From assembly GCA_903958395.1 (NCBI GenBank), contig CAJBSZ010000008.1, positions 2,394 through 66,393 of the forward strand: a DNA stretch of 64,000 bases. The letters run 5' to 3'. This stretch comes from an uncultured bacterium. GTDB taxonomy: Bacteria > Verrucomicrobiota > Kiritimatiellia > CAIKKV01 > CAITUY01. Positions 5,293-49,353 of this stretch are shown here, piece by piece. The notes under the pieces are model-generated. The model was not told where the DNA came from. It did not search any database and saw only the letters and a list, made by a program, of their open reading frames with translations. Positions within the stretch are counted from its first letter, which is position 1, and each line of letters starts with the position of its first letter. A program made the position numbers and the translations under genes.

Positions 5293-5298
5293 GACGCT

Positions 5299-7023: not shown

Positions 7024-7026
7024 CCT

Positions 7027-16815: not shown

Positions 16816-16835
16816 ACGCAGGAAGGATTTTGATT

Positions 16836-24020: not shown

Positions 24021-25475
24021 TCAATACGTTCGTCCCAGTTTCGTGCGGATCTTATAGAGCATGATGCCCCACAGGTAGACGAAGAAGCCGATTTCGCCGC
24101 TGCTCATCTTCAGGCGGAAGATGTGGGTGTATCCCTTAAAGCCTCGATAGATCAGATTGAAAAAGATATTGCCCGGCCACTTGATCAACCGGCGTGAGAG
24201 TGGGATCAGGGAGGGGAACTCGATGCACAGCGAGAAGAATTTGTGCAGGTTCTCAAATTCGCGCTTGGTCTCGCCCTTGTTGATGGGGGATTCCACCTGG
24301 TAGGATGCATGTTGCTTGTGTGACGGGTCGAGATAGCCCTTCTCGATGCAGTAGTGGTAAAGCTCGGTGCGCGGATAGGGCTGGAAAATGGAGGCCCAGG
24401 CATAGGCTGGCTTGACCCGGGTATTGACCTGGATGGTCTCATACGCATTCTCAATCGTCTCGTCGGGCAGACCCACCATGTTCTGGGTCATGATCGCGAT
24501 GCCGTACTTGTGGAACAGATCGGCCGCCTCAATGATCTTGGCGTTGGTCATGTCGCGCTTCAGCACCAGCTTCCGGAGTTCCTCGTTTCCGCTTTCGACG
24601 CCCATGGCGATGGTGACGCAGTTGGCCTTCTTGAGCGACTGAACCACTTCCTCGTTCACCAGATTGGCGCGGACATAGCAGATCATGGGCAGGCCAACGC
24701 GCTTGCTGTACACTTCGGCAAATTGTTTGAGCCAGACCCGGTTCATGATGAAGAGGTCGTCGTTGAAATAGACAATCTTGAGGGGGTAGTGCTTGCGAAC
24801 CTCCTCCAGTTCCTGAACCACATTCTCCACGCTGCGCAGGCGGCAATACTGGGTCTCGCCAGCCTCTTCCCGGTACATCTTCTTCAGCTTTCGGTTGAAG
24901 CAGTAAGTGCAGTCGTAGGGGCAGCCGCGGCCGGCCAGGAAATGCTTCACACTGCTGTGGGCGTAGGCATAGTACTTCAGGAACGAGGCCCGGTCGGGGA
25001 AGGGTAGGCTGTCCAGGTCATGGATCAGCGGGACGATCGGGTTCTTGACGACCTGTCCGTCCTTTTTGACCCAGAGATTCGGGATGGTGGAAATATCGCC
25101 GCCGGCCTGGAGCGTGTCGAGCAGTGTGACGATAGCGTCATCGCCTTCCCCCCGGCAGATGATGTCCACTTCCGGTTCATCAATAATTTCAGGAAAGAAG
25201 GTCGGGTGCGGGCCACCGAGGATCGAGATGAAATTCGTGTGTTTTCGAAGGCGGCGGATCAGTTCCAGGTAATACGGTTCGGCGCCGCTGGTCACGGAGA
25301 AGCCGATGACATCGGGCTTGAAGTCGGTCACGGCCTTGAAAAGATTAGGCTCCAGGTTGGTCAGGAAAAGGTCCGATTCGTGCCCATGTTTCTTGACATT
25401 GGCAATCAGGCACATGATCCCCATGGGATCCGTGATGTCGAGCGAGGCCGTTTTATAGACAAACAAACACTTCAT
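24021..25475 (-). CDS. B12-binding domain radical SAM enzyme
   Basis: N-terminal B12-binding Rossmann-like region. CxxxCxxC cluster GRGCPYDCTYCFN. 484 aa. Confidence 0.8.
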   Translation of the reverse strand: MKCLFVYKTASLDITDPMGIMCLIANVKKHGHESDLFLTNLEPNLFKAVTDFKPDVIGFSVTSGAEPYYLELIRRLRKHTNFISILGGPHPTFFPEIIDEPEVDIICRGEGDDAIVTLLDTLQAGGDISTIPNLWVKKDGQVVKNPIVPLIHDLDSLPFPDRASFLKYYAYAHSSVKHFLAGRGCPYDCTYCFNRKLKKMYREEAGETQYCRLRSVENVVQELEEVRKHYPLKIVYFNDDLFIMNRVWLKQFAEVYSKRVGLPMICYVRANLVNEEVVQSLKKANCVTIAMGVESGNEELRKLVLKRDMTNAKIIEAADLFHKYGIAIMTQNMVGLPDETIENAYETIQVNTRVKPAYAWASIFQPYPRTELYHYCIEKGYLDPSHKQHASYQVESPINKGETKREFENLHKFFSLCIEFPSLIPLSRRLIKWPGNIFFNLIYRGFKGYTHIFRLKMSSGEIGFFVYLWGIMLYKIRTKLGRTY

Positions 25476-35318: not shown

Positions 35319-36734
35319 ATGACTGAATCGCCCCCTGAAACTAAAGAAGCGCTTGTGATTGATTTGAATTTTGTCCCCGTCTGGGCAAGGAAACCGCCGG
35401 AGCACCGGACCTTTGGGGGAGGCGAATCCCGTGCCCCGGACGATGACCGGGGGAGTGATTCCCGGCGGCGGGAACGCCCTCAATATCAGGATCGAAGGGT
35501 TGGGGGTGGCGGTGGGCGGCGGCAGAATATCCGCGACAAACCGCGGGGTGACGCCGGGCAGGCGCCCTTCGTTCGCGAGGTGGTCGAGCCGGTGGACGAA
35601 CGATTGGCGGCGTTGGAAATGTCGTTTCTTCCGGAGCGTCGGGGTCTGGCGCCGCTGGCGAACCGGCTTGCCAAATCGGGCCGGGCGTATTCGCTGTTTG
35701 AGGTGGCGACGCTGTTTCTGAGCAAACCGGACTACTACCTGATCAAAATTGAAGCGCCGGCCGGGCTTGAGAATTTCTCCTTTTTCCAATGCTCCGACTG
35801 CAAGACTGTATTCCTTGACCGGGACGCGGCGGTGAGTCACGCTTTTGCGAAGCATTTTGAAAAGTTCTGCGTGAAGGTTGAGCAGGAGACCGAGCCGCCC
35901 AAGGGCAGTTTTGTGTGTGTGGCCAAGTGCGGGCTTTCAGGCCAGCTGTTGGGGCCGCTGAACTATCACGGGTACAACGACAAGGTGGCGGAAATTCACC
36001 GGACCCGCTATGCGGATATGCCGCTGGAGGCGTACCGGAAGCGGATCGAGACGATTCATGACCCGGCGCTGATTGAGCAGTGGAAAGAGGAGATGCGTAA
36101 GCAGGTGAGTTACCGGTTTGGAACCGGGGACGCCGCGGTTGTCTTCACCCGGTTTTCCGAAGCCGAGGTGTATTTCCGGGAGCATTGCCTGAAGGACGCG
36201 ATTAAAGAGACGCGATCGGTGGTCATGCCGGGAGCGGTTGCCCAAGCCCTTGAGCCGGGGCCGTTGCGCCGGGTGGTCGAGGACGCCTGGGATCGTGAAT
36301 CCCGATTCCCTTTGAGGTTGTCCGTGATTCTGCGGCTTGCCTTCCGGCATTTGGGATTGCATACCTTCAAGGCGGCGGGCGGGCACACGTTTGTGACCTC
36401 CGTGGTTCCCAATGCCATGGATCCCGGGCATGCCGTGGAGGGGATCCGGGAAGTGCTTGACATCATTTCCAGCAAGCCGGGCTGTACGCGTGCGGAACTG
36501 CTCGCCCAGCTTGTTTCTGTTGCCCCGCCGACCGGCGAGGCCGGAATCGAGCCAGCCCCGGAGGCCGGGGCGAAGAAGGAAAGTGAATTGAAGCGGCAGT
36601 TGCAATGGCTGGTTGAAAAGGGGCATGTCATTGAATTTTCAGACGGTCGTATGGCCATTCCGGCCACGGCGATCGCCCGGGTTCAGATGGCACGCACTCC
36701 GGCACACGCTCCGGCGCGAAGCCGGCGAGGATAA
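35319..36734 (+). CDS. Hypothetical protein with RG/RGG-rich N-terminal region and C2H2-like zinc-finger motif
   Basis: The N-terminal 80 aa are rich in R/G/D (RRRERPQYQDRRVGGGGGRRQNIRDKPRGD). FQCSDCKTVFLDRDAAVSHAFAKHF fits C-x2-C-x12-H-x4-H. A second CVAKC...H...H stretch follows. No family recognised. Confidence 0.5.
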   Translation: MTESPPETKEALVIDLNFVPVWARKPPEHRTFGGGESRAPDDDRGSDSRRRERPQYQDRRVGGGGGRRQNIRDKPRGDAGQAPFVREVVEPVDERLAALEMSFLPERRGLAPLANRLAKSGRAYSLFEVATLFLSKPDYYLIKIEAPAGLENFSFFQCSDCKTVFLDRDAAVSHAFAKHFEKFCVKVEQETEPPKGSFVCVAKCGLSGQLLGPLNYHGYNDKVAEIHRTRYADMPLEAYRKRIETIHDPALIEQWKEEMRKQVSYRFGTGDAAVVFTRFSEAEVYFREHCLKDAIKETRSVVMPGAVAQALEPGPLRRVVEDAWDRESRFPLRLSVILRLAFRHLGLHTFKAAGGHTFVTSVVPNAMDPGHAVEGIREVLDIISSKPGCTRAELLAQLVSVAPPTGEAGIEPAPEAGAKKESELKRQLQWLVEKGHVIEFSDGRMAIPATAIARVQMARTPAHAPARSRRG

Positions 36735-36756: not shown

Positions 36757-37242
36757 ATGAAGACAATGATTCTGGCAGGGTTGGGAATTCTGGTTTCGGT
36801 GGGATCTTCATTTTCGGCTCCCGTTGGGAGTGGAAGCGTTTCGCCGGAATTTCAGGCGCTCTATCAAAAGGCGTTGCTGACGGGCGGAACGAATGAGGTG
36901 ATCCGGAAACAGCTGGACGCCGCCATTGGGCGGGGAACCAGCGAGATGATCGGCCCCCTTTATTTGATGCGGGGAAATCTGGCGTTGAAAGCGGGGGATG
37001 AGGAGGCGGCCCTCTCGGATTTTCTGAAAGTGACGACCTTATTTCAAAAGAACAAGGCGATTCAGCCGGAAGCGTTGTATCAAGCGGCAGCGCTTTTGGA
37101 TGCCGCGCGGGATCCGCGTGGAGCAGACCTGCGAAAGAGCCTGATTCGGGATTACCCGGGAAATGAATTTGCCTTGAAAGCGGCAGCGGCCCCTAAATTG
37201 AGCGGTACGCCAGCCAGTTCTGTGCCTGCGAAAAAGCCCTGA
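36757..37242 (+). CDS. Secreted TPR-like protein
   Basis: RBS aggaagg. Signal peptide MKTMILAGLGILVSVGSSFSAP. Helical repeat content (LYLMRGNLALKAGDEEAALSDF). Confidence 0.5.
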   Translation: MKTMILAGLGILVSVGSSFSAPVGSGSVSPEFQALYQKALLTGGTNEVIRKQLDAAIGRGTSEMIGPLYLMRGNLALKAGDEEAALSDFLKVTTLFQKNKAIQPEALYQAAALLDAARDPRGADLRKSLIRDYPGNEFALKAAAAPKLSGTPASSVPAKKP

Positions 37243-37246: not shown

Positions 37247-37870
37247 TTACCGTTTGTCCTGGGCCAGCCGTTTCATGAGGGCCTTGTAGTCGGGCGGGGG
37301 CGAAACCACATCATCCGCGGTTCCCGCTTGTCCGTCCGGACCCATGGAGGAAAGCTGAACGGTGTCCTCAAGGGCGGAATAGAGAAAGGGATGTCCCCAG
37401 AGGTCGGGAGGCAGGCTTTCCAGATAGTTACCCTTCCAGCCTTTTACGCCTGGATTCCGAACCAGGGCTTTTAAGCTTTCCTCCGTGGTAGGGTACCGGT
37501 TGCAATGAGTTCGGAACCATTCCAGGGCGGTGCGAATCACCACCAGTTCCCGCTGGGTTTGGGCGCTCCGGGTCGGGGGCCGGTAGGGAACGACCGTTTC
37601 AATCCTGGTGCATAACAGAAAGGTCACCACGAGAACACAGCCACCCAGAACCCAGATCAGGAAACGGGGCCGACTCAGGAATACCATCCAGATTGGCCGC
37701 CTGAATTCCTGTGTTCCGGGGTGTCGTTTGAGAAACGCCTCGCGCCGGGTCTTTTCCGATTTGAGGAGTTTCCATTTTTCCGGATGCCGCAGGCCTTTCC
37801 CGCATGAGGGACAGTGGGGCCCCTCGAATTTTTCGAACAGGATGCTACAGTGTGGGCAACGGTATTTCAT
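37247..37870 (-). CDS. Zinc-ribbon / single-TM / GspG-like pseudopilin-domain membrane protein lacking a prepilin signal
   Basis: N-terminus CPHCSILFEKFEGPHCPSCG. TM helix IWMVFLSRPRFLIWVLGGCVLVVTFLL. C-terminal YPTTEESLKALVRNP...NYLESLPPDLWGHPFLY...MGPDGQAGTADDV resembles the GspG core YPTTEQGLQALV...LPKDPWGNDY...LGADGKEGGEG. Confidence 0.6.
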   Translation of the reverse strand: MKYRCPHCSILFEKFEGPHCPSCGKGLRHPEKWKLLKSEKTRREAFLKRHPGTQEFRRPIWMVFLSRPRFLIWVLGGCVLVVTFLLCTRIETVVPYRPPTRSAQTQRELVVIRTALEWFRTHCNRYPTTEESLKALVRNPGVKGWKGNYLESLPPDLWGHPFLYSALEDTVQLSSMGPDGQAGTADDVVSPPPDYKALMKRLAQDKR

Positions 37871-38034
37871 AGAATCGGCCTGTGTCAGGTCGTGCGGGAC
37901 TCTAGTTCAGGGCTGGGTCAGACTCAATCAAAAAACAACAGTTGAAGAGGATTTTGAAAAGTGTATTCTCATCGGCTGTTGAATCGGGCTGTCTTCTTGA
38001 CGGGTCAAAGTTTGTTTGATACCAAGGTGAAAAC

Positions 38035-40875
38035 ATGCTGACGAAAAAAAACGGTATATCGGGACTTTCGGCGGGGATAGTCTTGCTATTGGGCGTGATG
38101 TCGGGGGCGGGGCTTCCTCTTTCCGTTCTGGCGGATGAGCAGGCCGATATCCAGGCGGAATTGCAGTTTGCTTCCGAACTGATCAAGTGGCGCTTTCCGG
38201 ATTATGCCCAGAAAGCCATGGATCGGCTGTTGATCCGGTATCCCGCTGCGAAGGCTGAGGCGGCCAAGGTTCGCGTGGAAGTGCTCACCTCGCGCGGAAA
38301 ATTCGACGAAGCCGAGGCTCTGTTGAAGACCATGCCGGCGGGCACCCCGGAGACGATGGTCGTCCAACTTGCCATCGCCGACCAGTATTATGCCTGGCAG
38401 AAGATGAAAGATGCCGAGCGCGTCTACCAGGATTTCTTCAAGCAGTTTCCCAAAGGCCCCCCGGAGAACGTGGCACGGTTTTACGGGGAGTCGGCCTACA
38501 AATTCTCCCAGATGTTGCTTCTGAGCGGCGATTTGAAGGGGGGGTTGGAGGCGTATCGCCGGGTGCTGACCTGTCCCCTGAACTCTCCTGAAATTGAACG
38601 CCGCGTGAAAACCGAAATGGCCGAGCTCTGCCTGCGCGTAGCGCAGCTCCCCGCCACGACGGCGCCCGAGAAGAAGACGATCCTGGCGGAGGCTGAAAAG
38701 TTGTGCCAGGAGGTCCAGTGGAAGGGAACGGATTTGTGGTTTGCCAAGACGGTGGTGATTCTGGCACATGTCCGCATGCTTAACGGGGACAGGGCGGGGG
38801 CCCGTCGGGCGATCACGGATTATCTGCCCATGCTCATGGATGTGGATAAAATGCTGCGTGATGCCAAGGAGAACATGAAGCTCAGTCCGATGGCGGAATG
38901 CAAGTTCCTGCTGGGGACCCTTTATGAAGATGAGGGGCGTGAGGTGGTCAAGGTCAAGGCCCAGGAGGCGGATGGCATCAAGATGCTGGCGCAGGCGATG
39001 TCACAATTGTATTCGGTGGCCAAGAATTATCCCGGGAGCAGCTGGGCGCCCGAGGCGCGCCGCCGGGCCGACGCCATTGTGGATATGCTGGTGAAGGACA
39101 TGGGCAAGAAGGTGGTCAAGCCCGAGTTTGACAACACCCAGATGGTGACAGAACAGTTGAAGGAGGCTCATCTTCTTTTCCAACAGCAGGATTTCAAGAA
39201 CGCGGCTGAAAAATATGTGGATATCCTCAACATTACGGATGCCTTCAAGGGGGCGCCCGGGGCGGTGAGTGAGCTGGCCCGAAGCTATGTGGAGCTCCAG
39301 GACGAACCCTATGCCCGGGCGATGACCGAATTCCTGGCGGAACGGTTTAGCCAGACCACCAACCAGTATGAGGAGGCGGGAAATGCCTTGCTGGCGGTGG
39401 CGTCGGCCTATGATGACCGCCGCGCCTGGTTGAAGTCTGATTCGGTCTATCAGCTCTATTACCAGCGTTATCCGAATCATACTAAAGTCCCGTCCATTCT
39501 TTTCCGGCAGGGTGAGACGGCGCTGCGGGCGACCAACACCGTGGAGGCCTTGCAAAATTTCCAGAGAATTGTGGAAGACTATCCGAGAGCGCGGGTTTAT
39601 CCCGATGCGCTGAGCCGGCAGGCTTACTGTTTATCCATGCAGGGTGACCACACCAACGCCGTGCCGGTTCTGACCAATTATATTGCCCAGTTGTCTGCGG
39701 GAGTGGAGGTGCTGTCCGCGCGCCTGAGGCTTGCGGATGAATACCGGTCCGCCGGCATGACGGTTTCGGCTCTGAATGAGTATGCCCGCCTGCTGAAGCA
39801 GATCACCCAGGAGGGGGTGTCCTTGGGGGGAACTCCCGAGGATGCCACCCGGGTGAAAAAGATTGCGGAACTGGCTCTCTATTCCAAGGCCCAGTGTTAT
39901 ACCCGGCTTCGGGAACCGGCCAATCAGGTTCCCCTGTATCAGGCCAAGGCCATTGAGGGGTATGAGTTGTTCCTGAAGGAGTATCCCAAATCCGAGTTTG
40001 CGCCGTCGATTTTGGGCGCGATGGGAACCCTGTATTACCTGTTGAACAAGCCGGATGAGGCGGGGAAGACGTTTGACCGCCTGGCCAAGAACTATCCGGA
40101 GAGCCAGCAGGCGTTGAACATGGTTTTTGTGCGCGCGGATTCGCTCATGAATATGGGGGAGAAGGCCAAGGCCGTGACGGTGTATGCGGAGATGGCCAAG
40201 ACCCCGCAACTGTTCAATGCCTCCCAGTTCCTGCGGGCGGGGCGGGTGCTGTTGGATGCCCAGGAGTTTGAAACGGCCATACTTTTGCTCTCAGAAGCCC
40301 GAAAATCCAAGGATGTGCCGATCTGGCAGGGGGCGACAGTGGCGCTTGGGTGGGCATTGGCCGGTGCCGGGAAGTATGAGGAGTCCGTCAAGGTTTTTGA
40401 AGATTTTCTTGGAAAATACCAGAAATCTGGCTACGTGATCGATGTCAACCTGGCCCTCAGCCGGTGTTATGCGGAACTCGCCAAGAAGGCCTCGGATCCC
40501 CAGCAATCGAAGGATTTGTTCAGCAAGGCGTTTTCCGCCATGGGCAAGGTGCGCCAGTATTCGCGCGAGCCGGATATGATGGTCAAGGCGGATATTGAAA
40601 TGGCGGGCATTCAGGTATTGATGGGCGACAAGATGGGTGCCTTGGCCTCCTACCAGAGAATCCTGTTATTCGTGGATCCCTCCAATGTCAAAGTACGTCC
40701 CCATGTTGAAACGGCCTTTGATCGGAGTCTCCCGCTGTTCCGTGAAACCGGAAAGATCGATGGCCTGCAGGAAGCCTGCGAAACCTACATAAAGCAGTTC
40801 CCGCAGGGGCAGTTTATTGCGAAGGCGCGTCAGGGCCGCGACGAGGCGAAGGCCAAGCTAGCGTCGGGCCGGTAA
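38035..40875 (+). CDS. Large secreted tetratricopeptide-repeat protein (946 aa)
   Basis: Signal peptide GLSAGIVLLLGVMSGAGLPLSVLA, then many TPR-like helical pairs over the whole length. Confidence 0.7.
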   Translation: MLTKKNGISGLSAGIVLLLGVMSGAGLPLSVLADEQADIQAELQFASELIKWRFPDYAQKAMDRLLIRYPAAKAEAAKVRVEVLTSRGKFDEAEALLKTMPAGTPETMVVQLAIADQYYAWQKMKDAERVYQDFFKQFPKGPPENVARFYGESAYKFSQMLLLSGDLKGGLEAYRRVLTCPLNSPEIERRVKTEMAELCLRVAQLPATTAPEKKTILAEAEKLCQEVQWKGTDLWFAKTVVILAHVRMLNGDRAGARRAITDYLPMLMDVDKMLRDAKENMKLSPMAECKFLLGTLYEDEGREVVKVKAQEADGIKMLAQAMSQLYSVAKNYPGSSWAPEARRRADAIVDMLVKDMGKKVVKPEFDNTQMVTEQLKEAHLLFQQQDFKNAAEKYVDILNITDAFKGAPGAVSELARSYVELQDEPYARAMTEFLAERFSQTTNQYEEAGNALLAVASAYDDRRAWLKSDSVYQLYYQRYPNHTKVPSILFRQGETALRATNTVEALQNFQRIVEDYPRARVYPDALSRQAYCLSMQGDHTNAVPVLTNYIAQLSAGVEVLSARLRLADEYRSAGMTVSALNEYARLLKQITQEGVSLGGTPEDATRVKKIAELALYSKAQCYTRLREPANQVPLYQAKAIEGYELFLKEYPKSEFAPSILGAMGTLYYLLNKPDEAGKTFDRLAKNYPESQQALNMVFVRADSLMNMGEKAKAVTVYAEMAKTPQLFNASQFLRAGRVLLDAQEFETAILLLSEARKSKDVPIWQGATVALGWALAGAGKYEESVKVFEDFLGKYQKSGYVIDVNLALSRCYAELAKKASDPQQSKDLFSKAFSAMGKVRQYSREPDMMVKADIEMAGIQVLMGDKMGALASYQRILLFVDPSNVKVRPHVETAFDRSLPLFRETGKIDGLQEACETYIKQFPQGQFIAKARQGRDEAKAKLASGR

Positions 40876-40891: not shown

Positions 40892-41680
40892 ATGAACCGC
40901 AAGATCGTGATTGCTCTGGCTCTGGTGATGGGGGCCCTGGTGATATCCGCCCGGGTCGCCCCGGCCGAAATTTTGAGGAAAACGGATGGCAAGGAGCTGG
41001 CCGGAGTCCGGATCAAGTGGTTTGAGGTCCGGCGCGAATATCAGGTTGAAGGCGCTGATGGCTCCATGATCCCGGTTTCGGTCGACGAGGTGGATTCACT
41101 CGAGATTACCAAGCCGGCCGAATTTGACAAGGCTGCCCAAGCCATTGCCGCGCGCCAGTATGATGCGGCCATTCCGATCCTCGAGGATCTGACGATCCGG
41201 TATAAGCGGTTGCAGTGGGATGCCCGGGCGGGTGAACTACTGGCCAATGCCTATTTTGCGAAGACGGATTTCAAGAAGGCGGCTCAGGTCATGGGAGATC
41301 TCATGGAGAGTACCCCCAGGGGCCAGATCACGGATGAGCAGTACGGTTTGTATTGGACCGCCCTGATGGGGGCGCAAATGACGGCGGTGCTGAAGAAGCA
41401 GTTGAACGAGGCCATCGCGGGGGATTCCAAGACCCTGGCCGCGCTGGCGATTGTCAGGCGCGGTGACTTGAACAAGGCGGACGGGAAACGTGAAGATGCG
41501 ATTTTGGATTACCTTCGGGCTGTTTTGCTGTATGAGGAAGCGCGCGGAGTTCATCCTGAGGCGCTTTTCAAAGCCGTGCAGGTGCTGGATGAAATGCGGG
41601 ATCCGCGTGCCGATGAGCTGAAGAAGAAACTGTTGTCGCTGTATCCGGACAGCCCTTATGCAAGGAAGCTGGGCGGATGA
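40892..41680 (+). CDS. Secreted TPR-like periplasmic protein
   Basis: Signal peptide MNRKIVIALALVMGALVISARVAPA. C-terminal TPR-like helices. 16-nt gap from the upstream TPR gene. Confidence 0.55.
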   Translation: MNRKIVIALALVMGALVISARVAPAEILRKTDGKELAGVRIKWFEVRREYQVEGADGSMIPVSVDEVDSLEITKPAEFDKAAQAIAARQYDAAIPILEDLTIRYKRLQWDARAGELLANAYFAKTDFKKAAQVMGDLMESTPRGQITDEQYGLYWTALMGAQMTAVLKKQLNEAIAGDSKTLAALAIVRRGDLNKADGKREDAILDYLRAVLLYEEARGVHPEALFKAVQVLDEMRDPRADELKKKLLSLYPDSPYARKLGG

Positions 41681-41727: not shown

Positions 41728-42594
41728 GTGATGAAAAAAGCGTTCTGGATGGGATTGGTTGTGGTGGTTTTCAGCATGATCGTGTCGGCCCAGTGGGCCA
41801 AGGCGGCGGATCCGGCTCCTGCGGCGGCGGCTGGCGGAGCGGCGGCGGTGGCAAGCGCGCCTGCGCCTGCGCCTGCGCCTGCGGCGGCGGCGGGCGGCTT
41901 GGAATTGGATAAGGCCGAGGCCGAGGGCGCCAAAAAGGGCGGCCATGGGGGCGGCGGCTTTCTGGCAATCGTTCTGAATGCCGGCTGGTTCGGTATGGTC
42001 ATCTGGCTGATGCTAATTGCCTGTTCAGTCGTCAGTGTCGCATTGATTGTGGACTCCTTCATCAACATCAAGGATGCCAAGATCATGCCTCCGGATCTGA
42101 TCAGCAATGTCCGGACCGCCATGGAGCAGGGAGACCTGATGAAGGCGATTCAGCATTGCGACAGTACGCCGGGCCAGTTGGCGAACATTCTTAAAGCCGG
42201 GTTTGCGCAGGTTGAGGAAGGGTATGAGGTGGTTCAGGATGCCGTGAGCGTGGCGGCCGACTTGGAGACCGAAAAGTTGCTCAGTCGCGTCACCTATCTG
42301 AGCGTTATCGCGAACACAACGCCGATGCTGGGACTGATCGGAACGGTGCAGGGAATGATCTTCGCCTTCCTGACCCTGGGTACGATGGAGGCGGGCGCCG
42401 CGCAGTCGGCCATGCTGGCCGTCAACATTTCGCACGGGTTGTGGGCCACGGCCATCGGTCTGGGAACCGCCGTGCCGGCGACGATCTTCTTCTATTATTT
42501 CAAGAATCGGTCCATGAGCAGCATTCTGCGGATGGAAGCCCTGACGCTCGACATGATCAAGTCGCTGCGTAATGTCGAAGTCGTCGCGGAATAA
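41728..42594 (+). CDS. exbB: MotA/TolQ/ExbB-family proton channel with signal peptide and Ala/Pro-rich N-terminal extension
   Basis: RBS aaggag. Signal peptide, then an AP-rich low-complexity region. TM core with LSVIANTTPMLGLIGTVQGMIFAF, as in TolQ/ExbB. Confidence 0.8.
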   Translation: MMKKAFWMGLVVVVFSMIVSAQWAKAADPAPAAAAGGAAAVASAPAPAPAPAAAAGGLELDKAEAEGAKKGGHGGGGFLAIVLNAGWFGMVIWLMLIACSVVSVALIVDSFINIKDAKIMPPDLISNVRTAMEQGDLMKAIQHCDSTPGQLANILKAGFAQVEEGYEVVQDAVSVAADLETEKLLSRVTYLSVIANTTPMLGLIGTVQGMIFAFLTLGTMEAGAAQSAMLAVNISHGLWATAIGLGTAVPATIFFYYFKNRSMSSILRMEALTLDMIKSLRNVEVVAE

Positions 42595-42614: not shown

Positions 42615-43034
42615 ATGAAGGAAAAAAGAGAAGAAGAAGCGCTGAACGGCAATCTGACCGCCATGATCGACGTGGTGTTCCAGTTGATCATTTTCTTTGT
42701 CTGTACCGTCAATATGCAGGAAAAGGCGATTGACGACCGGATCAAGCTCGCCATGGCCCCGAACGGTAAGGTGAGTAACACCAAAAATCCGTACGAGGTC
42801 AAGGTGGATGTCAGCGATAATGGACTCGTGTCCATTGCGCGAACGGCGATGCCGGTTCAGATGCTGACTACCATCCTGAGGAAAGCGAGACTGGATGCGC
42901 GGGGAAATGAAGTCCCTGTTCTGATTCGGGCCGATGCCCGGGTGAAGCATGAGACCGTTCGGAAGGTCATGGATGCCTGTACGGCGGCCGGACTCTACAA
43001 AATTAAGTTTACGGCGCTGAAGGAAAGAGCCTAG
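42615..43034 (+). CDS. exbD: ExbD/TolR-family protein (copy 1)
   Basis: NLTAMIDVVFQLIIFFVCT TM anchor and a periplasmic domain. Confidence 0.8.
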   Translation: MKEKREEEALNGNLTAMIDVVFQLIIFFVCTVNMQEKAIDDRIKLAMAPNGKVSNTKNPYEVKVDVSDNGLVSIARTAMPVQMLTTILRKARLDARGNEVPVLIRADARVKHETVRKVMDACTAAGLYKIKFTALKERA

Positions 43035-43047: not shown

Positions 43048-43461
43048 ATGGCTAGAAAAAGACGGCGAAGTACGTTTACCGCGGGGGAACTGAACCTGAC
43101 GGCCATGATCGACGTGGCGTTTCAGCTGCTTAGTTTCTTCCTGGTCTCGGCCCATCCGGTGGATGTGTTGACCAATCTGGATGTTTTCCGGCCCCAGGCG
43201 GAAAAGCCATCCCAGCAGGAGTCACAGGCGAAAATCATCCGGGTTACAGTTTTTCCGGACGGTTTTACTATCAATGACCGCGGGGTAGACAGTCGACAGT
43301 TGACGAGCCTGCTCGGAAAGCTGGCGGATCTTGATAAGACGCAAACCGTTCTGATTCAATGTACAAACGAGTCGCCGCATGGAAAGCTGATCGAGCTTTT
43401 GGATATTTGCTCCAAACTCGGATTAGTCAACCTGTCCGTGGTTAGTTCCGGCGGCGCCTAG
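43048..43461 (+). CDS. exbD: ExbD/TolR-family protein (copy 2)
   Basis: LNLTAMIDVAFQLLSFFLVSA TM anchor. Confidence 0.8.
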   Translation: MARKRRRSTFTAGELNLTAMIDVAFQLLSFFLVSAHPVDVLTNLDVFRPQAEKPSQQESQAKIIRVTVFPDGFTINDRGVDSRQLTSLLGKLADLDKTQTVLIQCTNESPHGKLIELLDICSKLGLVNLSVVSSGGA

Positions 43462-43536: not shown

Positions 43537-45048
43537 ATGAATATTGATTACGATAAATTGATGTTTACGTTGAAAAAGCATGCATGGGGGCCTGTTGGCT
43601 CTGTGTTTTTTCATGTTTTGGGACTGGTTCTCCTGATTCAATTCTCAGTCGGTGTCTCGACTGAAAAGGCGCCCGAGGTTGAAGTGACGATGATGGAGAC
43701 CAAGGCGGAAGTCCTGGAGAAGGTGGAAGAGGTCGTGAAGCAGGAGTTGGAGAAGCCGCCGGAGCAGGAGGTGGTTTCCGACCGTCCGACGGATGCGACA
43801 GTCAGCACCATGGAAGTTCCCTCGGATGCACCGGGAAGCGGGCTTGGCAATTCGGATGGTGCGGGAATTGGTAGCGGCGATCCGTCGCTGGCGGCTGGAT
43901 TTGAAATTGCCATGGCGAAAAGTCCCCTCGTGATGAGGGGGCTGTACGCCCAGCGGACGGCCGGCGGGCGCAAGGGTGCCTTGAGCGCGTTCGGAGGCTC
44001 CGGTCGAGGGGAAGATGCCGTGATGCGGGCGTTGCGGTGGCTGAAGGAGAAGCAGGATGCCGATGGGTCATGGGTGAAAGCGGATGGTAATCCGGGACCG
44101 GCCATGGCAGGACTGGCGCTTCTGTGTTTCCTGGCTCACGGTGAAACTCCCGCCTCGCCCGAGTTCGGTGCCACTGTTGAAAAGGCCATGAAGTATATTG
44201 TGAGCAAGCAAAATGCTAAAGGAAGCTTTTCCGGGAATCCCTATGAGCATGGGATTTGTACCTATGCTATTGCGGAAGGCTTCGGGCTGACCAAGATCAT
44301 GGCGCTGAAAGAGGCCATGGAAAAGGGGATTCAGGTGGTCATTGACGGGCAGCAGACGGGCGGGGGATATAATTATAATTACGAAAAAAAGGAACGGTGG
44401 GACTTGTCCGTAGCCGGGTGGCAGTTTCAGGCGATGAAGGCGGCGAAAATGGCGGGAAGTTCCAACCCCAGGCTGGAGGATGCGATTGCCAGCGGCATTA
44501 AATTTTTAAGGAATACAGCCCATCAGCCTACGAAGGGGTTTGGATATGCCAGCCCGAGTTCATCGCCCTCCATGACTGGTGCCGGAACCTTGTGTCTCCA
44601 GTTGCTCGGTAAACCGGACTGTCCTGAGGTGCGGAGCGGGCTGAAGTGGATGGAGGAGACAAAGAGTCCGGTATTTGATGTGACTTGGGCGAAAGAGGAT
44701 GCGACGCCAGCGCCTGCCGCGGACAAGGGCAAAGCAGCTCCAAAAGCCGGGGCGAAAAATCCGGTTTATGCTTGGTACTATATTACTCAGGCGAAGTTCC
44801 AAAAGGGCGAATCGGACTGGAAGGAATGGAATCCGAAATTTACAACCGCGCTGATCCGAAACCAGATTGTCGAGGGTAAACTGGGGCATTGGGAGGGCGG
44901 GGATCACGGAGCGAAGGTTTATACCACCGCGCTTTGCACCTTGATGCTGGAAGTTTATTACCGTTACCTGCCGACCTTCAAGCATGTTGAGGTGGCCGCT
45001 CCCGCCGCCGCCGTCAAATCCGATGACGTTGTTGTGGATGTGAAGTAG
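43537..45048 (+). CDS. TonB-position protein: N-terminal TM anchor plus Glu/Pro/Val-rich spacer plus squalene-cyclase/prenyltransferase-like (QW-motif) alpha/alpha-toroid domain
   Basis: TM helix VGSVFFHVLGLVLLIQF. Charged spacer EKAPEVEVTMMETKAEVLEKVEEVVKQELEKPPEQEV. QW-like repeats LRWLKEKQDADGSW, KYIVSKQNAKGSF and IQVVIDGQQTGGGY. No TonB C-terminal domain. Confidence 0.6.
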   Translation: MNIDYDKLMFTLKKHAWGPVGSVFFHVLGLVLLIQFSVGVSTEKAPEVEVTMMETKAEVLEKVEEVVKQELEKPPEQEVVSDRPTDATVSTMEVPSDAPGSGLGNSDGAGIGSGDPSLAAGFEIAMAKSPLVMRGLYAQRTAGGRKGALSAFGGSGRGEDAVMRALRWLKEKQDADGSWVKADGNPGPAMAGLALLCFLAHGETPASPEFGATVEKAMKYIVSKQNAKGSFSGNPYEHGICTYAIAEGFGLTKIMALKEAMEKGIQVVIDGQQTGGGYNYNYEKKERWDLSVAGWQFQAMKAAKMAGSSNPRLEDAIASGIKFLRNTAHQPTKGFGYASPSSSPSMTGAGTLCLQLLGKPDCPEVRSGLKWMEETKSPVFDVTWAKEDATPAPAADKGKAAPKAGAKNPVYAWYYITQAKFQKGESDWKEWNPKFTTALIRNQIVEGKLGHWEGGDHGAKVYTTALCTLMLEVYYRYLPTFKHVEVAAPAAAVKSDDVVVDVK

Positions 45049-45054: not shown

Positions 45055-46842
45055 ATGAGCGAGGGCGGTCACATTCGACTTCTTCCCGCCGATGTGGCGA
45101 ACAAAATCGCGGCGGGGGAAGTGGTCGAGAGACCCGCCTCAGTGCTCAAGGAAATCCTCGAAAACGCCATTGATGCCGGTGCCTCCCAGATTGATGTGGA
45201 GGCCGTCGCGGGAGGAACCCGGCTGGTGTCGGTGTCGGACAATGGCTCAGGGATGAATCGTGACGATGCGTTGCTGTCCATTGAGCGGCATGCCACCAGC
45301 AAGATTCACACGGCCGCCGACATCGAACACATTCATACGCTGGGCTTCCGGGGGGAGGCGTTGGCGGCCATTTCATCTGTCTCACGCTTCCGTATCCGAA
45401 CGCGGTGTCATGATGAATTGGCCGGCACGGAACTGGTGGTCAGCGGCGGCAAGTTGTTGGATGTGAAGGATGCCGGGTGTCCACCGGGAACGATCCTTGA
45501 AATCCGCGATCTATTCTTCAATCTTCCCGCCCGCCGCAAGTTTTTAAGGTCACCCCAGACCGAAACCACCCATATCCGGCAGATGTTCCTGTTGCAGGCC
45601 TTGGCCTGGCCTGCTGTGGGAATGAGCCTGACTCTGGATGGCCGGAAGTCGTGGGCTCTGGCACCCGGTGCCACGCCCCTGGAGCGGATCCGGGAGCTTT
45701 TCGGGCAGGCTCTGATTGACGGGCTCCGGCCCTTGGAACAGGGGCGAGGTGATATTAAACTGTCGGGATATGTAAGCCTGCCCGCACTGACCCGGGGGGA
45801 TCGTACGGAACAGTATGTGTTTGTCAATGGACGGCCTGCGTCGGCCCCGGTGATCGGGTATGCGATCAACGAGGCGTTTCATTCGCTGATTCCGGCCGGT
45901 CGGCATCCCTATATTTTCATGTATCTTGACCTCGAGCCCGGCCTGGTGGATGTGAATGTCCACCCGACGAAGAAGGAGGTTCGATTCAGGCGTTCCTCGG
46001 ATGTGCGCGATGCGATCATTGGCGCGATCCGGAACGCCCTGGCGAAGTCCGGAGCCGCCTTTGTGGCGGGTCAGACTCCGATCCCGGAACCGGTGCCCCC
46101 GATGCCGGCGGCGGTTACCCCGCTTCTAAAAATCGATGATCTCCCGGCATCGCGTGTGTTTTCCTATCCCCGGCTGCCCCCGATTGAGCCCCGTCCGGTA
46201 ACGGTCGAGTCACGCGCCGCCCAAAAGCCGGGGGACGTCGTGAAGGCGGCCCCGAAGGCGCCCTGGACGTGGTGCCGGGTGGTGGGGCAGATCAATGGCC
46301 TGTATGTGTTGCTGGAGACGGAGGATGGTTTTGTGGTGATGGATCCCCACGCGGCGCATGAACGGGTGCTGTTCGAGAAACTGCTGAATGCGGTTGAGCA
46401 CGGCCAGGTCGAGAGTCAGGGCCTGTTGGTTCCCGAGACAGTTGAACTTCAGCCGCGGGATGCCTTGTATGTCCGGAAGAATATCGAATTGATCAAGACG
46501 CTCGGGGTTGGGGTTTCTGAGTTCGGGGGCGACACGTTTGTGGTGGACGCCCTGCCCCGGGGCATGGACGGCCTCGGTATCAAGGACATGCTGATTGATG
46601 TCGCCCGTCATCTGGAGACCTTGGGGGAGCGGGGCAGCCACAGCCGGTGGCGCGAGGAGGCGATAGCCCAGGCGGCCTGTAAGGCGGCGGTGAAGGCGCG
46701 CGACCGGCTGAGCCTGTCCGAGGTGGAGCAGCTGGTCATAGCCCTGGCTTCTGCAGAAATGCCCTACACCTGCCCGCATGGCCGGCCGACGTTGATTTAC
46801 ACTTCATTCAGGGAACTGGATCGTAAGTTCGGTCGCGAATAA
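45055..46842 (+). CDS. mutL: DNA mismatch repair protein MutL
   Basis: IRLLPADVANKIAAGEVVERPASVLKEILENAIDAGA...HTLGFRGEALAAI, and a C-terminal dimerisation domain. Confidence 0.9.
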   Translation: MSEGGHIRLLPADVANKIAAGEVVERPASVLKEILENAIDAGASQIDVEAVAGGTRLVSVSDNGSGMNRDDALLSIERHATSKIHTAADIEHIHTLGFRGEALAAISSVSRFRIRTRCHDELAGTELVVSGGKLLDVKDAGCPPGTILEIRDLFFNLPARRKFLRSPQTETTHIRQMFLLQALAWPAVGMSLTLDGRKSWALAPGATPLERIRELFGQALIDGLRPLEQGRGDIKLSGYVSLPALTRGDRTEQYVFVNGRPASAPVIGYAINEAFHSLIPAGRHPYIFMYLDLEPGLVDVNVHPTKKEVRFRRSSDVRDAIIGAIRNALAKSGAAFVAGQTPIPEPVPPMPAAVTPLLKIDDLPASRVFSYPRLPPIEPRPVTVESRAAQKPGDVVKAAPKAPWTWCRVVGQINGLYVLLETEDGFVVMDPHAAHERVLFEKLLNAVEHGQVESQGLLVPETVELQPRDALYVRKNIELIKTLGVGVSEFGGDTFVVDALPRGMDGLGIKDMLIDVARHLETLGERGSHSRWREEAIAQAACKAAVKARDRLSLSEVEQLVIALASAEMPYTCPHGRPTLIYTSFRELDRKFGRE

Positions 46843-46902: not shown

Positions 46903-47532
46903 ATGAATAATGTCACGATAACCGATATGATCATGCAGGGTTGGCCGGTGCTGTCGATCCTGTTGCTGATGTCTATTTTTTCCATCACCATTATTGTGGA
47001 TCGCGTGCGGTTGATCCGCCGGTATCAGGTAAACGCACGGTCGTTCATGGCGCGACTGCTCCGGATTCTGGCGGAGCAGGGAAAGCCCCAGGCGGTGGAG
47101 TTCTGCAGGAAATATGAATTTCCAATCGCCGCAGTATCCCTCGAAATTCTGACACAGCAGGGGGGGCGGGCGGCCAAGGAGCGGGCGATGGAGCATGCGA
47201 TGCAGGCTCAGGTCCGGAAGCTGGAGGCCATGGTTCCGGTTTTGGGAACCGTCGCGGGAACGGCGCCTTTTGTAGGGCTGTTCGGGACGGTGGTCGGTAT
47301 CATCAAGGCGTTCGCCAGTATTGCAGCCAACGCAGGCGGAGGGCCGGAAGTGGTGTCCGCCGGCATTGCCGAGGCGTTGATCACCACAGCCTGCGGCCTG
47401 GTGGTCGCGATTCCCGCCCTGATTGGCTACAACTATTGCATCCATATGTCCGAGGTGCTCATGACGGATGTCGAGCTTTCGGTCTATGATCTGGTGGAGA
47501 CGGTCTGCAAGGACGAGGGACCCGCGGCATGA
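46903..47532 (+). CDS. MotA/TolQ/ExbB-family proton channel (second motor)
   Basis: GWPVLSILLLMSIFSITIIV...VPVLGTVAGTAPFVGLFGTVVGIIKAF. Confidence 0.75.
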   Translation: MNNVTITDMIMQGWPVLSILLLMSIFSITIIVDRVRLIRRYQVNARSFMARLLRILAEQGKPQAVEFCRKYEFPIAAVSLEILTQQGGRAAKERAMEHAMQAQVRKLEAMVPVLGTVAGTAPFVGLFGTVVGIIKAFASIAANAGGGPEVVSAGIAEALITTACGLVVAIPALIGYNYCIHMSEVLMTDVELSVYDLVETVCKDEGPAA

Positions 47533-47954
47533 AGGCCCCCGCCAAGGTGCTTGGAAAACACCGCATCATGGCCGAGATCAACATGATCCCGTTCATTGAT
47601 GTGGCGCTGGTGTTGTTGCTGATCTTTATGATCATGACGCCCCTGCTGGTGCAGTCACAACTCAAGATCAATCTTCCCGGCATCAAAAAAGTCGAGTCTG
47701 ATCAGCCACGCAAACAGACCCTCACCGTCCAGGTGGACCGTGCGGGAACAGCCTATCTCAGCGGTATGCCCGTGGCGCCTGATTTGCTGGAAGGCCGGCT
47801 TCGTCAGTTGTTGACCGATCCCGAACATCAGCCCGTTATCGTGGAGGCCGATAAGGATGTCCCGTTCCAGCATGTGGTGACCGTGATGGATACTGCCAAG
47901 CGGATCGGGGCAACAAAGCTGGCCGTCTCCGTCAAGAAGCAAGGGTCGAAATAG
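47529..47954 (+). CDS. ExbD/TolR-family protein (second motor)
   Basis: INMIPFIDVALVLLLIFMIMTP. ATGA overlap with the upstream gene. Confidence 0.75.
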   Translation: MKAPAKVLGKHRIMAEINMIPFIDVALVLLLIFMIMTPLLVQSQLKINLPGIKKVESDQPRKQTLTVQVDRAGTAYLSGMPVAPDLLEGRLRQLLTDPEHQPVIVEADKDVPFQHVVTVMDTAKRIGATKLAVSVKKQGSK

Positions 47955-48033: not shown

Positions 48034-49353
48034 TTATTCCGCGAAGACATACAGGATCATCTTCTGTCTGAGCGCGGGGGCGACGAAGTCCCGGAGGGTT
48101 CCGTAGCGCAGTTTTGCGGGCGCAAAAATCAACAGGACGGAGGGAGCCTCTTTCCGTGTCTTTAAGGCGGGCTCCAGGGCGGCTGGCGCAGGGATCGGGA
48201 TGCGGGTTTCATGAAACACCGGGGCGGAGTCGTCGCCTTTCCATTCGGATTCCACCAGGATCAGTTCCCCGGTCGTGACGCCTTCCCTTGTGCCCAGATG
48301 AAGTTCGGCAACCTTGTCGAAACGATCTTCCCGCTTCCTGAATTTTTCATTGGGCAGGAACGCCCTGAAATAGGGATGTCCGGGAGGAGGCGGCTCGACA
48401 CGAATGCCGCGCTCATTGTCGAGGGAATCCAGGAGGTGGGCGAGGGGCTGAACGTCATGGAGGGGGAGAGCCTCGTCGGGGGTCAGCGTTACGAAAGCAT
48501 CCCGATCAGTGGTTGAATAACGGGATAGGGCCGCCAGCATACCGTTCCGTGATCGATTGGTGTTGAGGGCGTGTTCCTGGCTGTCCAGCAGGGTGTAGGC
48601 CAGGTTGGTGCCATCGGGTGCGACCAGCAGGGAGAGATCGAAGCGGTGGGGAAGGGTGTCCCGGTAGAATGGCTCAAGGGTAATTTCGACAAGGTGGTTG
48701 GTGGGAAGCACATGATCCGGGTTGGGGATCTGGAAGGTATAGACCTCTTGCTTCGGAGCGGTGCGGGGGACATCCAGGACGGAGTAGCCCTCGTTGTAAA
48801 TCGAAGCAATGCTGCCGGGGCCGTAGGCGTCTGCGGCATAGACCCTGCCGGTGGGCGGGTCGCCTGCGGAAACCCACTCTGATCCGGTGAAGACCAGGCC
48901 GGTTTCCGGCAGGGTTTTTCCGGATCGGGTGTCTTGAATCAGGTGTTCGAAGGGAAGGTGAAAGATCGAGCCGGTCGGGGACTGGGTGTCTGCACTATGA
49001 AAAACCATTTTAACACGGTCCCCTTTGGGCCAGAACCGGAGTTGGGACGGATCGACGCCCCGGCCGGGCTCCAGGCCGATGAATCGGAGCGATTCATGGA
49101 TATCGAGCGCGGAGGCTTGTGAAACGGCGAGCGCCTCATAATCCTTTCCGCTTTCCCGGGTGACCAGGGGGAACTCCACAGGGTCAGTGGCTTTCAGGGC
49201 TGTGGTTGTTGCGGCGATGCGGACGATCTGTCCTGTCCGATCAGCTATTAATCCGGGACGGACGAAGAAGTTGGACTGGGCTTCGCAGAGGGAGAATCCC
49301 ATGAACAGGGTAAGGCCTGTCACTCCGGCAGTGATGTGGGTAATAAGTTTCAT
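48034..49353 (-). CDS. Secreted hypothetical protein (about 440 aa)
   Basis: Signal peptide MKLITHITAGVTGLTLFMGFSLCEAQS at M48 of the listed ORF. No recognised domain. Confidence 0.5.
   Translation of the reverse strand: MKLITHITAGVTGLTLFMGFSLCEAQSNFFVRPGLIADRTGQIVRIAATTTALKATDPVEFPLVTRESGKDYEALAVSQASALDIHESLRFIGLEPGRGVDPSQLRFWPKGDRVKMVFHSADTQSPTGSIFHLPFEHLIQDTRSGKTLPETGLVFTGSEWVSAGDPPTGRVYAADAYGPGSIASIYNEGYSVLDVPRTAPKQEVYTFQIPNPDHVLPTNHLVEITLEPFYRDTLPHRFDLSLLVAPDGTNLAYTLLDSQEHALNTNRSRNGMLAALSRYSTTDRDAFVTLTPDEALPLHDVQPLAHLLDSLDNERGIRVEPPPPGHPYFRAFLPNEKFRKREDRFDKVAELHLGTREGVTTGELILVESEWKGDDSAPVFHETRIPIPAPAALEPALKTRKEAPSVLLIFAPAKLRYGTLRDFVAPALRQKMILYVFAE

Follow-up and report, generated by a model that had tools for sequence, protein, structure and literature searches.

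A large family of pseudopilin-like membrane proteins with a Cys4 ribbon where GspG has its leader

We describe a large, conserved and unnamed family of bacterial proteins, here called ZnR-GspG, that keeps the entire mature pseudopilin, has lost both of its defining residues and has gained a predicted cytoplasmic zinc ribbon. What defines type IV pilins and pseudopilins is that they carry a cleavable class III signal and polymerise via their N-terminal helix. Two residues, Gly-1 and Glu5, are required for prepilin processing and assembly, with Glu5 serving pilin-pilin registration. The member studied here is a 207-aa protein encoded at 37247..37870 on the minus strand of the window, i.e. the whole 64,000-nucleotide stretch of DNA that was analysed. 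The ORF, the family alignment and a Pfam T2SSG match together define the gene. The domain architecture is secure: a ribbon is followed by a single transmembrane (TM) helix and a GspG-like head.

An earlier note on this DNA had presented the protein as a singular oddity. In fact it belongs to a family of at least 149 clusters at 50% identity that score E<=1e-30, and its members come from Kiritimatiellia/Verrucomicrobia/Lentisphaerae-type bacteria. The pattern CxxC..CxxC is found inside the first 90 aa in 110 of 148 new family representatives. In the databases the members are labelled "GspG", and certain gene calls are shortened to 146 aa; this labelling and truncation inflate the T2SS inventories of PVC genomes. 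Nothing relevant came out of literature searches on pseudopilins with a zinc ribbon and on links between pilins and ExbB in Kiritimatiellota. Elsewhere in the window there is no second copy of the gene.

The start codon is the first one downstream of an in-frame stop, so that a prepilin leader added from an upstream in-frame start, a possibility raised in the earlier note, is impossible. When orthologues are compared, the substitutions in codons 1-61 are distributed over codon positions 1/2/3 as 12/6/30 against the related locus L015 and 9/7/31 against L004. From this excess at third positions it follows that the zinc-ribbon part is translated. Judged from the codon pattern, purifying selection acts on codons 1-61 in this frame, and the public 145-146-aa gene calls that begin at Met62 are, on the same sequence evidence, truncated versions. 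A start at Met62 was considered and is ruled out by the codon-position pattern in codons 1-61.

The C-terminal part of the protein is a GspG-type globular head (residues 101-190; 37301..37570, minus strand) with an invariant GPDG..T.DD loop. Pfam PF08334 (T2SSG) matches residues 101-187 with E=2e-19 and 70.1 bits against a gathering cutoff of 21, while a sequence comparison with the PDB finds solved GspG, PulG, XcpT and EpsG chains at E=6e-11 to 7e-9. The best Foldseek matches of the AF2 model (pLDDT 71) are GspG structures. The T2SS major pseudopilin core that had been read from the letters is therefore confirmed, as profile and Foldseek searches both return a GspG-type domain and not an unrelated fold. 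The score against the GspG equivalog TIGR01710 is 60.8 bits, below the cutoff of 88.85. Within the family D156, W158 and G177 are invariant, and D179 and D187 are retained in 152 of 153 members.

Two further elements flank the head. Beyond the reach of the Pfam and PDB alignments there is a family-specific C-terminal helix (residues 191-207 plus stop, PPPDYKALMKRLA; 37247..37300, minus strand), which is helical over residues 195-205 in the AF2 model and conserved in the family alignment. Before the head runs a proline-containing tether (residues 89-100, with VVPYRPP; 37571..37606, minus strand), non-helical in the AF2 model and placed between helix 68-87 and helix 101-123. Its VVP at 93-95 aligns with VVP 20-22 of GspG, and P95 takes the position of pilin P22; it is retained in 83 of 153 family members.

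Residues 70-88 (37607..37663, minus strand) form the only hydrophobic segment, with a Kyte-Doolittle mean of 2.52, which bears out the single helix predicted behind the ribbon. The resemblance to pseudopilins had been placed in the C-terminal 110 aa, and this proved too narrow: the alignment of the family profile with full-length PulG (5wda) spans residues 3-127 (E=2.9e-18). Because the alignment begins at PulG residue 3, the TM helix corresponds to the pilin's own alpha1N. The profile alignment pairs F70 with pilin F1, V74 with Glu5 and R69 with Gly-1. Among the 153 members the column aligned with Gly-1 holds R 82, S 17, P 13, L 9, V 7 and A 5 times, with Gly outside the top six, and at the Glu5 column the six commonest residues are V, A, I, G, M and L, with Glu likewise outside.

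The prepilin signal is thus absent, as the earlier note had maintained: Gly-1 is replaced by Arg69 and Glu5 by Val74, and a regular-expression search finds the prepilin motif in 0 of 148 new family representatives. ZnR-GspG also gives no match to the N_methyl family of Pfam. The short basic leader ending in Gly-1 is missing; R69 stands there, preceded by 68 residues. A hidden cleavage site at G76-G77/C78 was considered and rejected, as the GG is missing in distant members and no Glu follows five residues on.

At the N-terminus we find a Cys4 ribbon (residues 1-30; 37781..37870, minus strand) formed by C5, C8, C20 and C23, which is predicted to be cytoplasmic and to bind zinc. Both the conservation of the cysteines and the codon pattern point to it: C5-x2-C8 and C20-x2-C23 are unchanged in 21 aligned homologues. 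The ribbon had been described as CxxC-x12-CxxC; the four cysteines stand, while the spacer has 11 residues and not 12. Zinc-ribbon models of Pfam reach sub-threshold scores only (Zn_ribbon_4 E=2.2, Zn_ribbon_8 E=0.042), and the ribbon alone finds nothing with E<0.07 among PDB sequences, only chance-level matches to sirtuin and RING zinc sites. In the AF2 model it matches the ZitP zinc finger 2nb9 weakly (Foldseek E=0.84, probability 0.33), and by Pfam, Foldseek and PDB sequence search it has no significant similarity to the ribbons of ZitP or GltJ.

Between ribbon and membrane lies a basic linker of low model confidence (residues 31-69; 37664..37780, minus strand), predicted to be cytoplasmic, with pLDDT <50 over residues 33-58. 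It ends in R67-P68-R69, of which R69 is invariant and R67 and P68 are nearly so in the family alignment. Residues 1-69 contain 17 K/R and 6 D/E, a net charge of +11. We infer an N-in/C-out topology because of this charge, because the ribbon comes without a signal peptide and because the GspG-type domain is periplasmic in all known relatives. The protein is probably a permanent resident of the inner membrane.

The gene is divergent from a TPR/ExbBD cluster, as first noted, and the ORF map gives the spacer to the TPR gene as 164 bp (37871..38034); a consensus scan of this spacer found no sigma-70-like site. The cluster runs on the plus strand. It opens with a 946-aa TPR protein with YbgF/CpoB-like and BamD-like repeats (38035..40875), whose gene is syntenic in L001-L019, L036, L042, L045 and L046, and continues with a 262-aa CpoB/BamD-like TPR protein of weak N-terminal Mul1B-family similarity (40892..41680), a TolQ/ExbB-like gene (41728-42594), two ExbD/TolR-like genes (42615-43034 and 43048-43461) and a 503-aa protein that combines a TonB-type N-terminal anchor with an alpha/alpha-toroid periplasmic domain (43537..45048). 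A secreted YdjY-domain protein is encoded at 48034..49353 (minus strand); its homologue elsewhere is the product of a gene overlapping ZnR-GspG. On the other side a small secreted TPR protein (36757..37242, plus strand), a paralogue of the 262-aa protein with a probable start at Met49 of the listed ORF, is convergent with ZnR-GspG, and the two stop codons are 4 nt apart.

The 503-aa protein has the anchor residues S22, H26, L33 and S37, and is likely the energy transducer of the cluster. The idea of ZnR-GspG as a TonB analogue arose from its N-terminal anchoring and its proline tether. As a TonB/TolA-like transducer it was rejected: its TM helix FLIWVLGGCVLVVTFLLCT contains no His and no TonB-type S-x3-H-x6-L-x3-S motif, while the neighbouring 503-aa protein has such an anchor. 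Since the S-x3-H motif is missing, the helix has no sequence sign of ExbB docking. Neither Pfam nor NCBIfam finds a TonB_C or TolA C-terminal domain in the protein, and its C-terminus is T2SSG.

In related loci the same genes recur as a super-locus of TPR, CpoB-like, TolQ-like, two ExbD, TonB-anchor-toroid, MutL and YdjY-domain proteins. Across Kiritimatiellia/Verrucomicrobiota-type lineages ZnR-GspG takes four positions in the super-locus, in five arrangements, and its orthologues there share 33-97% identity. The gene lies divergently upstream of the TPR gene (the window, L001-L015) or co-directionally upstream of it (L036, L037); it is found between the CpoB-like gene and ExbB, either antisense (L016-18, L043) or sense (L019); and in three lineages (L039, L042, L045) its start is overlapped by the end of the YdjY-domain gene over 4 nt. 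The closely related L001-L015 could share their arrangement by common descent only.

A second context is seen in 8 distinct Lentisphaerae/Victivallales-type loci, where hisI precedes ZnR-GspG and no Exb genes are nearby; these comprise seven full-length matches (L020-L024, L040/41, L044) and L026, a head-only match. The context of L025 differs from both. When super-loci were reached from the other side, two of them (the P0299 context and L046) had no T2SSG gene within 10 kb, and the association is thus not obligatory. T2SS/T4P genes (GspC-M, PilB/C/D, secretin) adjoin ZnR-GspG neither in the window nor in any related locus examined. The survey of homologues that had been proposed thus finds super-locus or, in the Lentisphaerae-type loci, hisI neighbours and no prepilin motif, and the suggestion of an anchor, anti-pilin or sensor of a T2SS finds no support in gene context.

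How could such a protein be used? We tentatively favour, at a confidence that falls somewhat short of one half, that ZnR-GspG is a non-polymerising, membrane-anchored pseudopilin derivative that works as an adaptor or accessory of a PVC-type Tol/Ton-like envelope system. A major pseudopilin ancestor would have become a bitopic inner-membrane protein by three changes: the cleavable short leader was replaced by a 69-residue cytoplasmic segment with a Cys4 zinc ribbon, the residues for processing and assembly were lost (Gly-1 to Arg, Glu5 to Val), and the pilin helix was interrupted by a proline-containing tether. Because of these changes the pilin alpha1N would anchor the protein permanently, N-in/C-out, and the GspG-type head and its GPDG..T.DD loop would be held near the membrane on the periplasmic side; extraction into a filament would presumably be impossible.

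The system in question would consist of the TPR, CpoB-like, TolQ-like, two ExbD and TonB-anchor-toroid proteins together with the secreted YdjY-domain protein, which has a TolR-like fold. As to partners, the head may bind a periplasmic protein, the best candidate being the YdjY-domain protein, and the zinc ribbon may bind a cytoplasmic one, by analogy with GltJ (MglB) and ZitP (PopZ). This assignment of function and partners, like the lack of polymerisation, is what we infer from homology and gene context. The repeated relocation of the gene inside one Tol/Ton-like super-locus opens a testable route into an envelope system of which little is understood.

A different role would be as a part of a type IV filament machine, i.e. 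a non-extractable pseudopilin docked in the assembly platform via its alpha1N-derived helix and acting as anchor, primer or brake of the filament, with the ribbon touching the cytoplasmic ATPase or the PilM side. Candidates for this machine would be the pilus locus at 4651-12036 of the window, which is Amuc_1098-1102-like and includes a PilM-like gene and a secretin, and a T2SS encoded at some other place in the genome. The homology does include the platform-docking pilin helix and the conserved head loop, the family persists in Lentisphaerae-type loci without an adjacent Exb cluster, and in ZitP there is a precedent for a bitopic zinc-finger protein that controls pilus biogenesis (PMC5182063). 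However, the pilus-like cluster is 25 kb from ZnR-GspG, a Pfam scan of 40 window ORFs has no match to the GspE, GspF or PilD families, no related locus examined has a filament-machine neighbour, and hydrophobic residues stand in place of Glu5. We regard this explanation as unlikely, although it is a serious one.

It is also conceivable that the gene order is only inherited, and that ZnR-GspG serves the envelope in some general way, with ties neither to the Tol/Ton-like cluster nor to filament machines. The existence of two distinct conserved contexts and of super-loci without the gene would agree with this, as would the behaviour of mutL, which has no obvious link to the system and is equally faithfully embedded in the super-locus. 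On the other hand, the gene has not left the super-locus in at least four independent moves, among them an insertion into the cluster and one that gave the 4-nt overlap, and drift alone does not readily give repeated relocation inside one super-locus. This makes mere inheritance rather improbable in our judgement.

Anti-sigma-factor-type proteins are typically built of a zinc-binding N-terminus, one TM helix and a domain in the periplasm. ZnR-GspG shares this layout and might be a one-component signalling protein, whose head senses an envelope or glycan cue and whose ribbon sequesters or releases a cytoplasmic regulator. In two loci (L024 and L040) lexA lies two genes upstream, and in L025 an ORF identified by eye as sigma-70-like lies 2 kb upstream. 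Such neighbours are not consistent, however, for any regulator gene, and in the window no sigma gene is adjacent. The ribbon is CxxC-x11-CxxC and not the HxxxCxxC of zinc-binding anti-sigma factors (ZAS), and Pfam and NCBIfam give no anti-sigma match. We hold a signalling role of this kind to be quite improbable.

Finally, that ZnR-GspG is an ordinary GspG with a mis-called start, the true protein beginning at Met62 as in the 146-aa public calls, is barely credible even though several databases list 145-146-aa versions and sources call the family "general secretion pathway protein G", for this reading is at odds with the purifying selection on codons 1-61 and with the TIGR01710 score, the four Cys and the RPR motif are (near-)invariant across aligned homologues, and the G/FTLIE motif is missing from the short version too.

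Among known systems, the adaptor role that we favour can be compared with GltJ (AgmX) of the Agl-Glt gliding machinery of Myxococcus xanthus, whose Cys4 ribbon (C5, C8, C28, C31) is a protein-binding switch module and which works with the Agl TolQR-type motor (PMC11135422). In both proteins an N-terminal Cys4 ribbon, predicted to be cytoplasmic in ZnR-GspG, begins with C5 and C8 and is followed by one TM helix and a domain on the periplasmic side. The cytoplasmic region of GltJ, however, has 377 residues and a GYF domain, compared with the 69 residues of ZnR-GspG, and its periplasmic domain is TonB-C where ZnR-GspG has a pseudopilin head.

ZitP of Caulobacter crescentus is a bitopic zinc-finger protein that governs a type IV (Tad) pilus via a partner protein (PMC5182063). 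In its bitopic, zinc-finger layout ZnR-GspG resembles ZitP, and 2nb9 is among the Foldseek matches, if weakly. The periplasmic domain of ZitP is DUF3426, and neither PopZ nor CpaM turned up around ZnR-GspG in the loci examined.

The degradation of polysaccharides and mucin is a speciality of the bacteria concerned, and periplasmic uptake in Akkermansia depends on related loci. In Akkermansia muciniphila the MUL2 genes are Amuc_1098-1102 (PMC13174399), and these have clear homologues in the window. The likeness to MUL1, the Amuc_0543-0550 locus of the Mul1A/Mul1B transporter, is fainter: the 262-aa TPR protein and its L045/L046 orthologues score 17.3-18.4 bits, short of the NCBIfam Mul1B cutoff of 75. 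It would be a long shot, in our view, that the pseudopilin has turned into a fixed inner-membrane subunit of a pmf-driven PVC Tol/Ton-like machine, a possible counterpart of the glycan-uptake system MUL1, and physically links the motor to the type IV-filament-like MUL2 apparatus encoded in the window; if true, no earlier case would be known of a type IV pilin fold that functions apart from a filament machine.

The closest relatives are GspG, PulG and XcpT, and the alignment with them takes in alpha1N, the proline at the P22 position, alpha1C, the beta-sheet head and the GxDG..T.DD loop. Where GspG has a short basic leader, however, ZnR-GspG has its 69-residue zinc-ribbon segment; it has Arg for Gly-1 and Val for Glu5 and no N-methylation motif, and its alpha1C is set apart from the TM helix by a proline-rich break. 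In addition it has a conserved C-terminal helix that is absent from GspG, scores under the equivalog cutoff and lies in no gsp operon among the loci examined. Seen against GspG, ZnR-GspG would be a natural reuse of the pilin fold as a permanent bitopic membrane protein.

The ORF at 37247-37870 (minus strand) encodes a 207-aa protein, here called ZnR-GspG. The earlier note likened its C-terminus to the major pseudopilin GspG, and this holds at the level of both profile and fold. Pfam PF08334, whose gathering score is 21, matches residues 101-187 with 70.1 bits and E=2e-19, and solved chains of GspG, PulG, XcpT and EpsG match with E-values from 6e-11 to 7e-9. The top Foldseek matches of an AlphaFold2 model (21 homologues as input, mean pLDDT 71) are EHEC GspG, XcpT and PulG, not an unrelated fold. 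TIGR01710 scores 60.8 bits, under its cutoff of 88.85.

The likeness extends beyond the head, since the family profile aligns with residues 3 to 127 of full-length PulG (5wda; E=2.9e-18), and by its sequence the membrane helix is homologous to pilin alpha1N. In the PulG register F70 corresponds to F1, the invariant R69 to Gly-1, V74 to Glu5 and P95 to pilin P22. Gly-1 is the residue required by prepilin peptidase. Among 153 aligned members, arginine is the commonest residue in this column (82/153) and glycine is outside the top six; at Glu5 the top six are V/A/I/G/M/L, without glutamate. As the earlier note had it, the prepilin site is missing, and ZnR-GspG fails every class III signal test.

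The head is well conserved in the same 153 members: none departs from D156, W158 or G177, and 152 retain D179 and D187. Its GxDG..T.DD stretch is presumably the calcium-binding loop of GspG. In the model a non-helical, proline-containing tether (VVPYRPP) separates the TM helix (68-87) from alpha1C (101-123), and a conserved helix at the C-terminus (PPPDYKALMKRLA) has no counterpart in GspG. ZnR-GspG is thus a pseudopilin derivative. The structural reading of the note is supported and sharpened: the entire mature pseudopilin is kept, helix included.

A first homologue search gave 50 relatives of about 207 aa each, and all 20 that were aligned with the window protein share its architecture. A wider search of 1.84 billion representative proteins (clusters at 50% identity, E<=1e-30) found at least 149 clusters, nearly all aligning from profile position 1. 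CxxC..CxxC occurs inside the first 90 residues in 110 of the 148 new representatives, the ribbonless ones looking mostly like N-terminally truncated metagenomic fragments, and the prepilin motif is absent from all 148. When one genome per species was scanned, matches over nearly the whole protein were found at 25 loci, all in MAGs (labelled Kiritimatiellia, Verrucomicrobiota, PVC group, Victivallales, Lentisphaerae or "bacterium"). The source name of the relatives is "general secretion pathway protein G", and a literature search found no description of the family. It is common across PVC bacteria, has no name and is wrongly annotated. Tandem-head variants also exist, as relatives such as P0051 (465 aa) and P0087 (484 aa) have three to five GspG-like head stretches per polypeptide.

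The gene was described as divergent from a TPR/ExbBD cluster. Both gene and cluster are as described, but the cluster belongs to a more extensive conserved Tol/Ton-like super-locus. Its members are a TPR protein (~950 aa) with YbgF/CpoB-like repeats, a CpoB/BamD-like protein (~265 aa), a TolQ-like ExbB with two ExbD/TolR, a TonB-anchor-toroid protein of ~510 aa (503 aa at 43537-45048, +), MutL (45055-46842, +) and often a second TolQ/TolR pair (46903-47954, +). A convergent, secreted YdjY-domain protein completes the set; its homologue in the window lies at 48034-49353, 10 kb from the ZnR-GspG gene. The 503-aa protein has a TonB-type anchor (S22-x3-H26-x6-L33-x3-S37), spaced like E. coli TonB S16/H20/L27/S31, and an alpha/alpha-toroid (squalene-cyclase-like) periplasmic domain replaces the TonB C-terminal domain. 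The S-x3-H core is present in 72 of 115 full-length homologues, from a family of >2000 hits. This protein, not ZnR-GspG, is likely the energy transducer.

In every lineage seen, mutL is flanked by the TonB-anchor-toroid gene on one side and, on the other, by either the second TolQ/TolR pair or the YdjY-domain gene; its placement matches the window in L001, L007, L008, L012-L015, L036, L042 and L045-L047, with MutL identity down to 57%. The second TolQ/TolR pair (125 and 94 bits) is nearer to canonical TolQ/TolR than its counterpart in the TPR cluster, and keeps its position in L016, L045 and L047. A 471-aa protein at 35319-36734 (+) has no Pfam or NCBIfam match and no TM segment, and its CSDC...H....H motif is reminiscent of a C2H2 finger; in L042 a homologue (53% identity) immediately precedes the TPR gene, so the protein may belong to the super-locus as a cytoplasmic component. 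Distant lineages share a B12-binding radical SAM gene no more than a few kb from the super-locus (24021-25475, minus strand, in the window; 1106-2674 in L042; 12179-13720 in L045). Elsewhere, one ORF (16830-18518, +) encodes an RpiB/LacAB-type sugar-phosphate isomerase domain (residues 6-143) followed, in the same polypeptide, by a complete serine hydroxymethyltransferase (157-532).

Within the super-locus the ZnR-GspG gene takes four positions in five arrangements. It is divergent and upstream of the TPR gene in the window and L001-L015, co-directional upstream of it in L036 and L037 (49% identity), antisense between the CpoB-like gene and ExbB in L016-18 and L043, sense there in L019, and overlaps the end of the YdjY-domain gene by 4 nt in L039, L042 and L045 (33-38% identity). 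Such repeated moves inside one locus argue, subject to the exceptions given below, for a functional tie, and the gene context points away from the proposed roles as anchor, anti-pilin or sensor.

The reading we favour, tentatively, is that ZnR-GspG is an N-in/C-out, pseudopilin-derived protein which, in this organism, serves the Tol/Ton-like system as an adaptor or accessory component. We infer its topology, zinc binding, non-polymerisation and partners. It would be a permanent inner-membrane protein, its pilin helix turned into an anchor and its head kept near the membrane by the tether; the zinc ribbon would be a cytoplasmic protein-binding module, and the best candidate for a periplasmic partner is the YdjY-domain protein.

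That ZnR-GspG is instead a pseudopilin that cannot be extracted and works with a type IV filament machine is less likely. In its favour, the pilin helix and head are conserved, and the family persists away from Exb genes. In Lentisphaerae/Victivallales-type loci the gene is not near Exb genes; in eight distinct loci of this type it lies immediately downstream of hisI (PRA-CH), with seven full-length matches (L020-L024, L040/41, L044) and one of the head only (L026). Some of these have lexA upstream. No functional reason for the placement after hisI is apparent, and L025 has yet another context. Against a filament role, filament genes are wholly missing from the gene's surroundings: no T2SS/T4P core gene lies beside the ZnR-GspG gene in any locus examined, and a Pfam scan of 40 window ORFs gave no GspE, GspF or prepilin peptidase match.

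That the gene order is merely inherited and the function unrelated seems improbable given the repeated moves; however, L001-L015 have a single arrangement that common descent could account for, and two super-loci reached from the other side (the P0299 context and L046) show no T2SSG gene closer than 10 kb. An anti-sigma-like signalling protein is a slightly poorer prospect still.

The window also holds, 25 kb from the ZnR-GspG gene, a five-gene cluster (4651-12036, +) of clear homologues of Akkermansia Amuc_1102, Amuc_1101, Amuc_1100, Amuc_1099 and Amuc_1098. The Amuc_1101 homologue is PilM-like (E=8e-144) and that of Amuc_1098 a secretin (E=4e-134); scores are under the equivalog cutoffs except for Amuc_1099 (86 bits against 50). 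The cluster is the "MUL2" pilus-like locus, here in a non-Akkermansia PVC genome. Akkermansia is reported to require MUL genes in order to accumulate mucin (PMC12418764; PMC13174399). The CpoB/BamD-like TPR protein (262 aa in the window) matches NCBIfam Mul1B weakly (17-18 bits; the cutoff is 75), as do its orthologues in two other lineages. A relation of the super-locus to MUL1 is a lead only. Should ZnR-GspG prove to link a Ton/Tol-like motor with an apparatus for glycan uptake that resembles a pilus, it would be of greater interest.

An ordinary GspG with a wrong start can practically be dismissed, being ruled out by codon-position evidence: substitutions in codons 1-61 number 12/6/30 by codon position against the L015 orthologue and 9/7/31 against that of L004, mostly at third positions, so the zinc ribbon is translated. 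The ATG is the earliest start codon downstream of an in-frame stop, which makes a prepilin leader from an upstream start, as the earlier note considered, impossible. Public calls of 145-146 aa starting at Met62 (37247-37687 in the window; P0038, P0040, P0041, P0322-P0324) drop the ribbon and are truncations; together with the name "GspG" they conceal the true family architecture in databases.

The ribbon consists of C5-P-H-C8 and C20-P-S-C23; the two pairs are as first described, but the spacer counts 11 residues, not 12. A basic segment follows (17 K/R against 6 D/E in residues 1-69), and then the single hydrophobic stretch expected, residues 70-88 (Kyte-Doolittle mean 2.52). Neither Pfam nor NCBIfam has a model that covers the N-terminal part. 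Pfam zinc-ribbon models match under cutoff and PDB sequences at chance level, and the Foldseek match of the model to ZitP is weak (E=0.84). In layout, the closest precedents are GltJ of Myxococcus, whose zinc ribbon (C5, C8, C28, C31) is followed by one TM helix and, in the periplasm, by a TonB-C domain (PMC11135422), and ZitP of Caulobacter, a bitopic zinc-finger protein controlling pilus biogenesis (PMC5182063).
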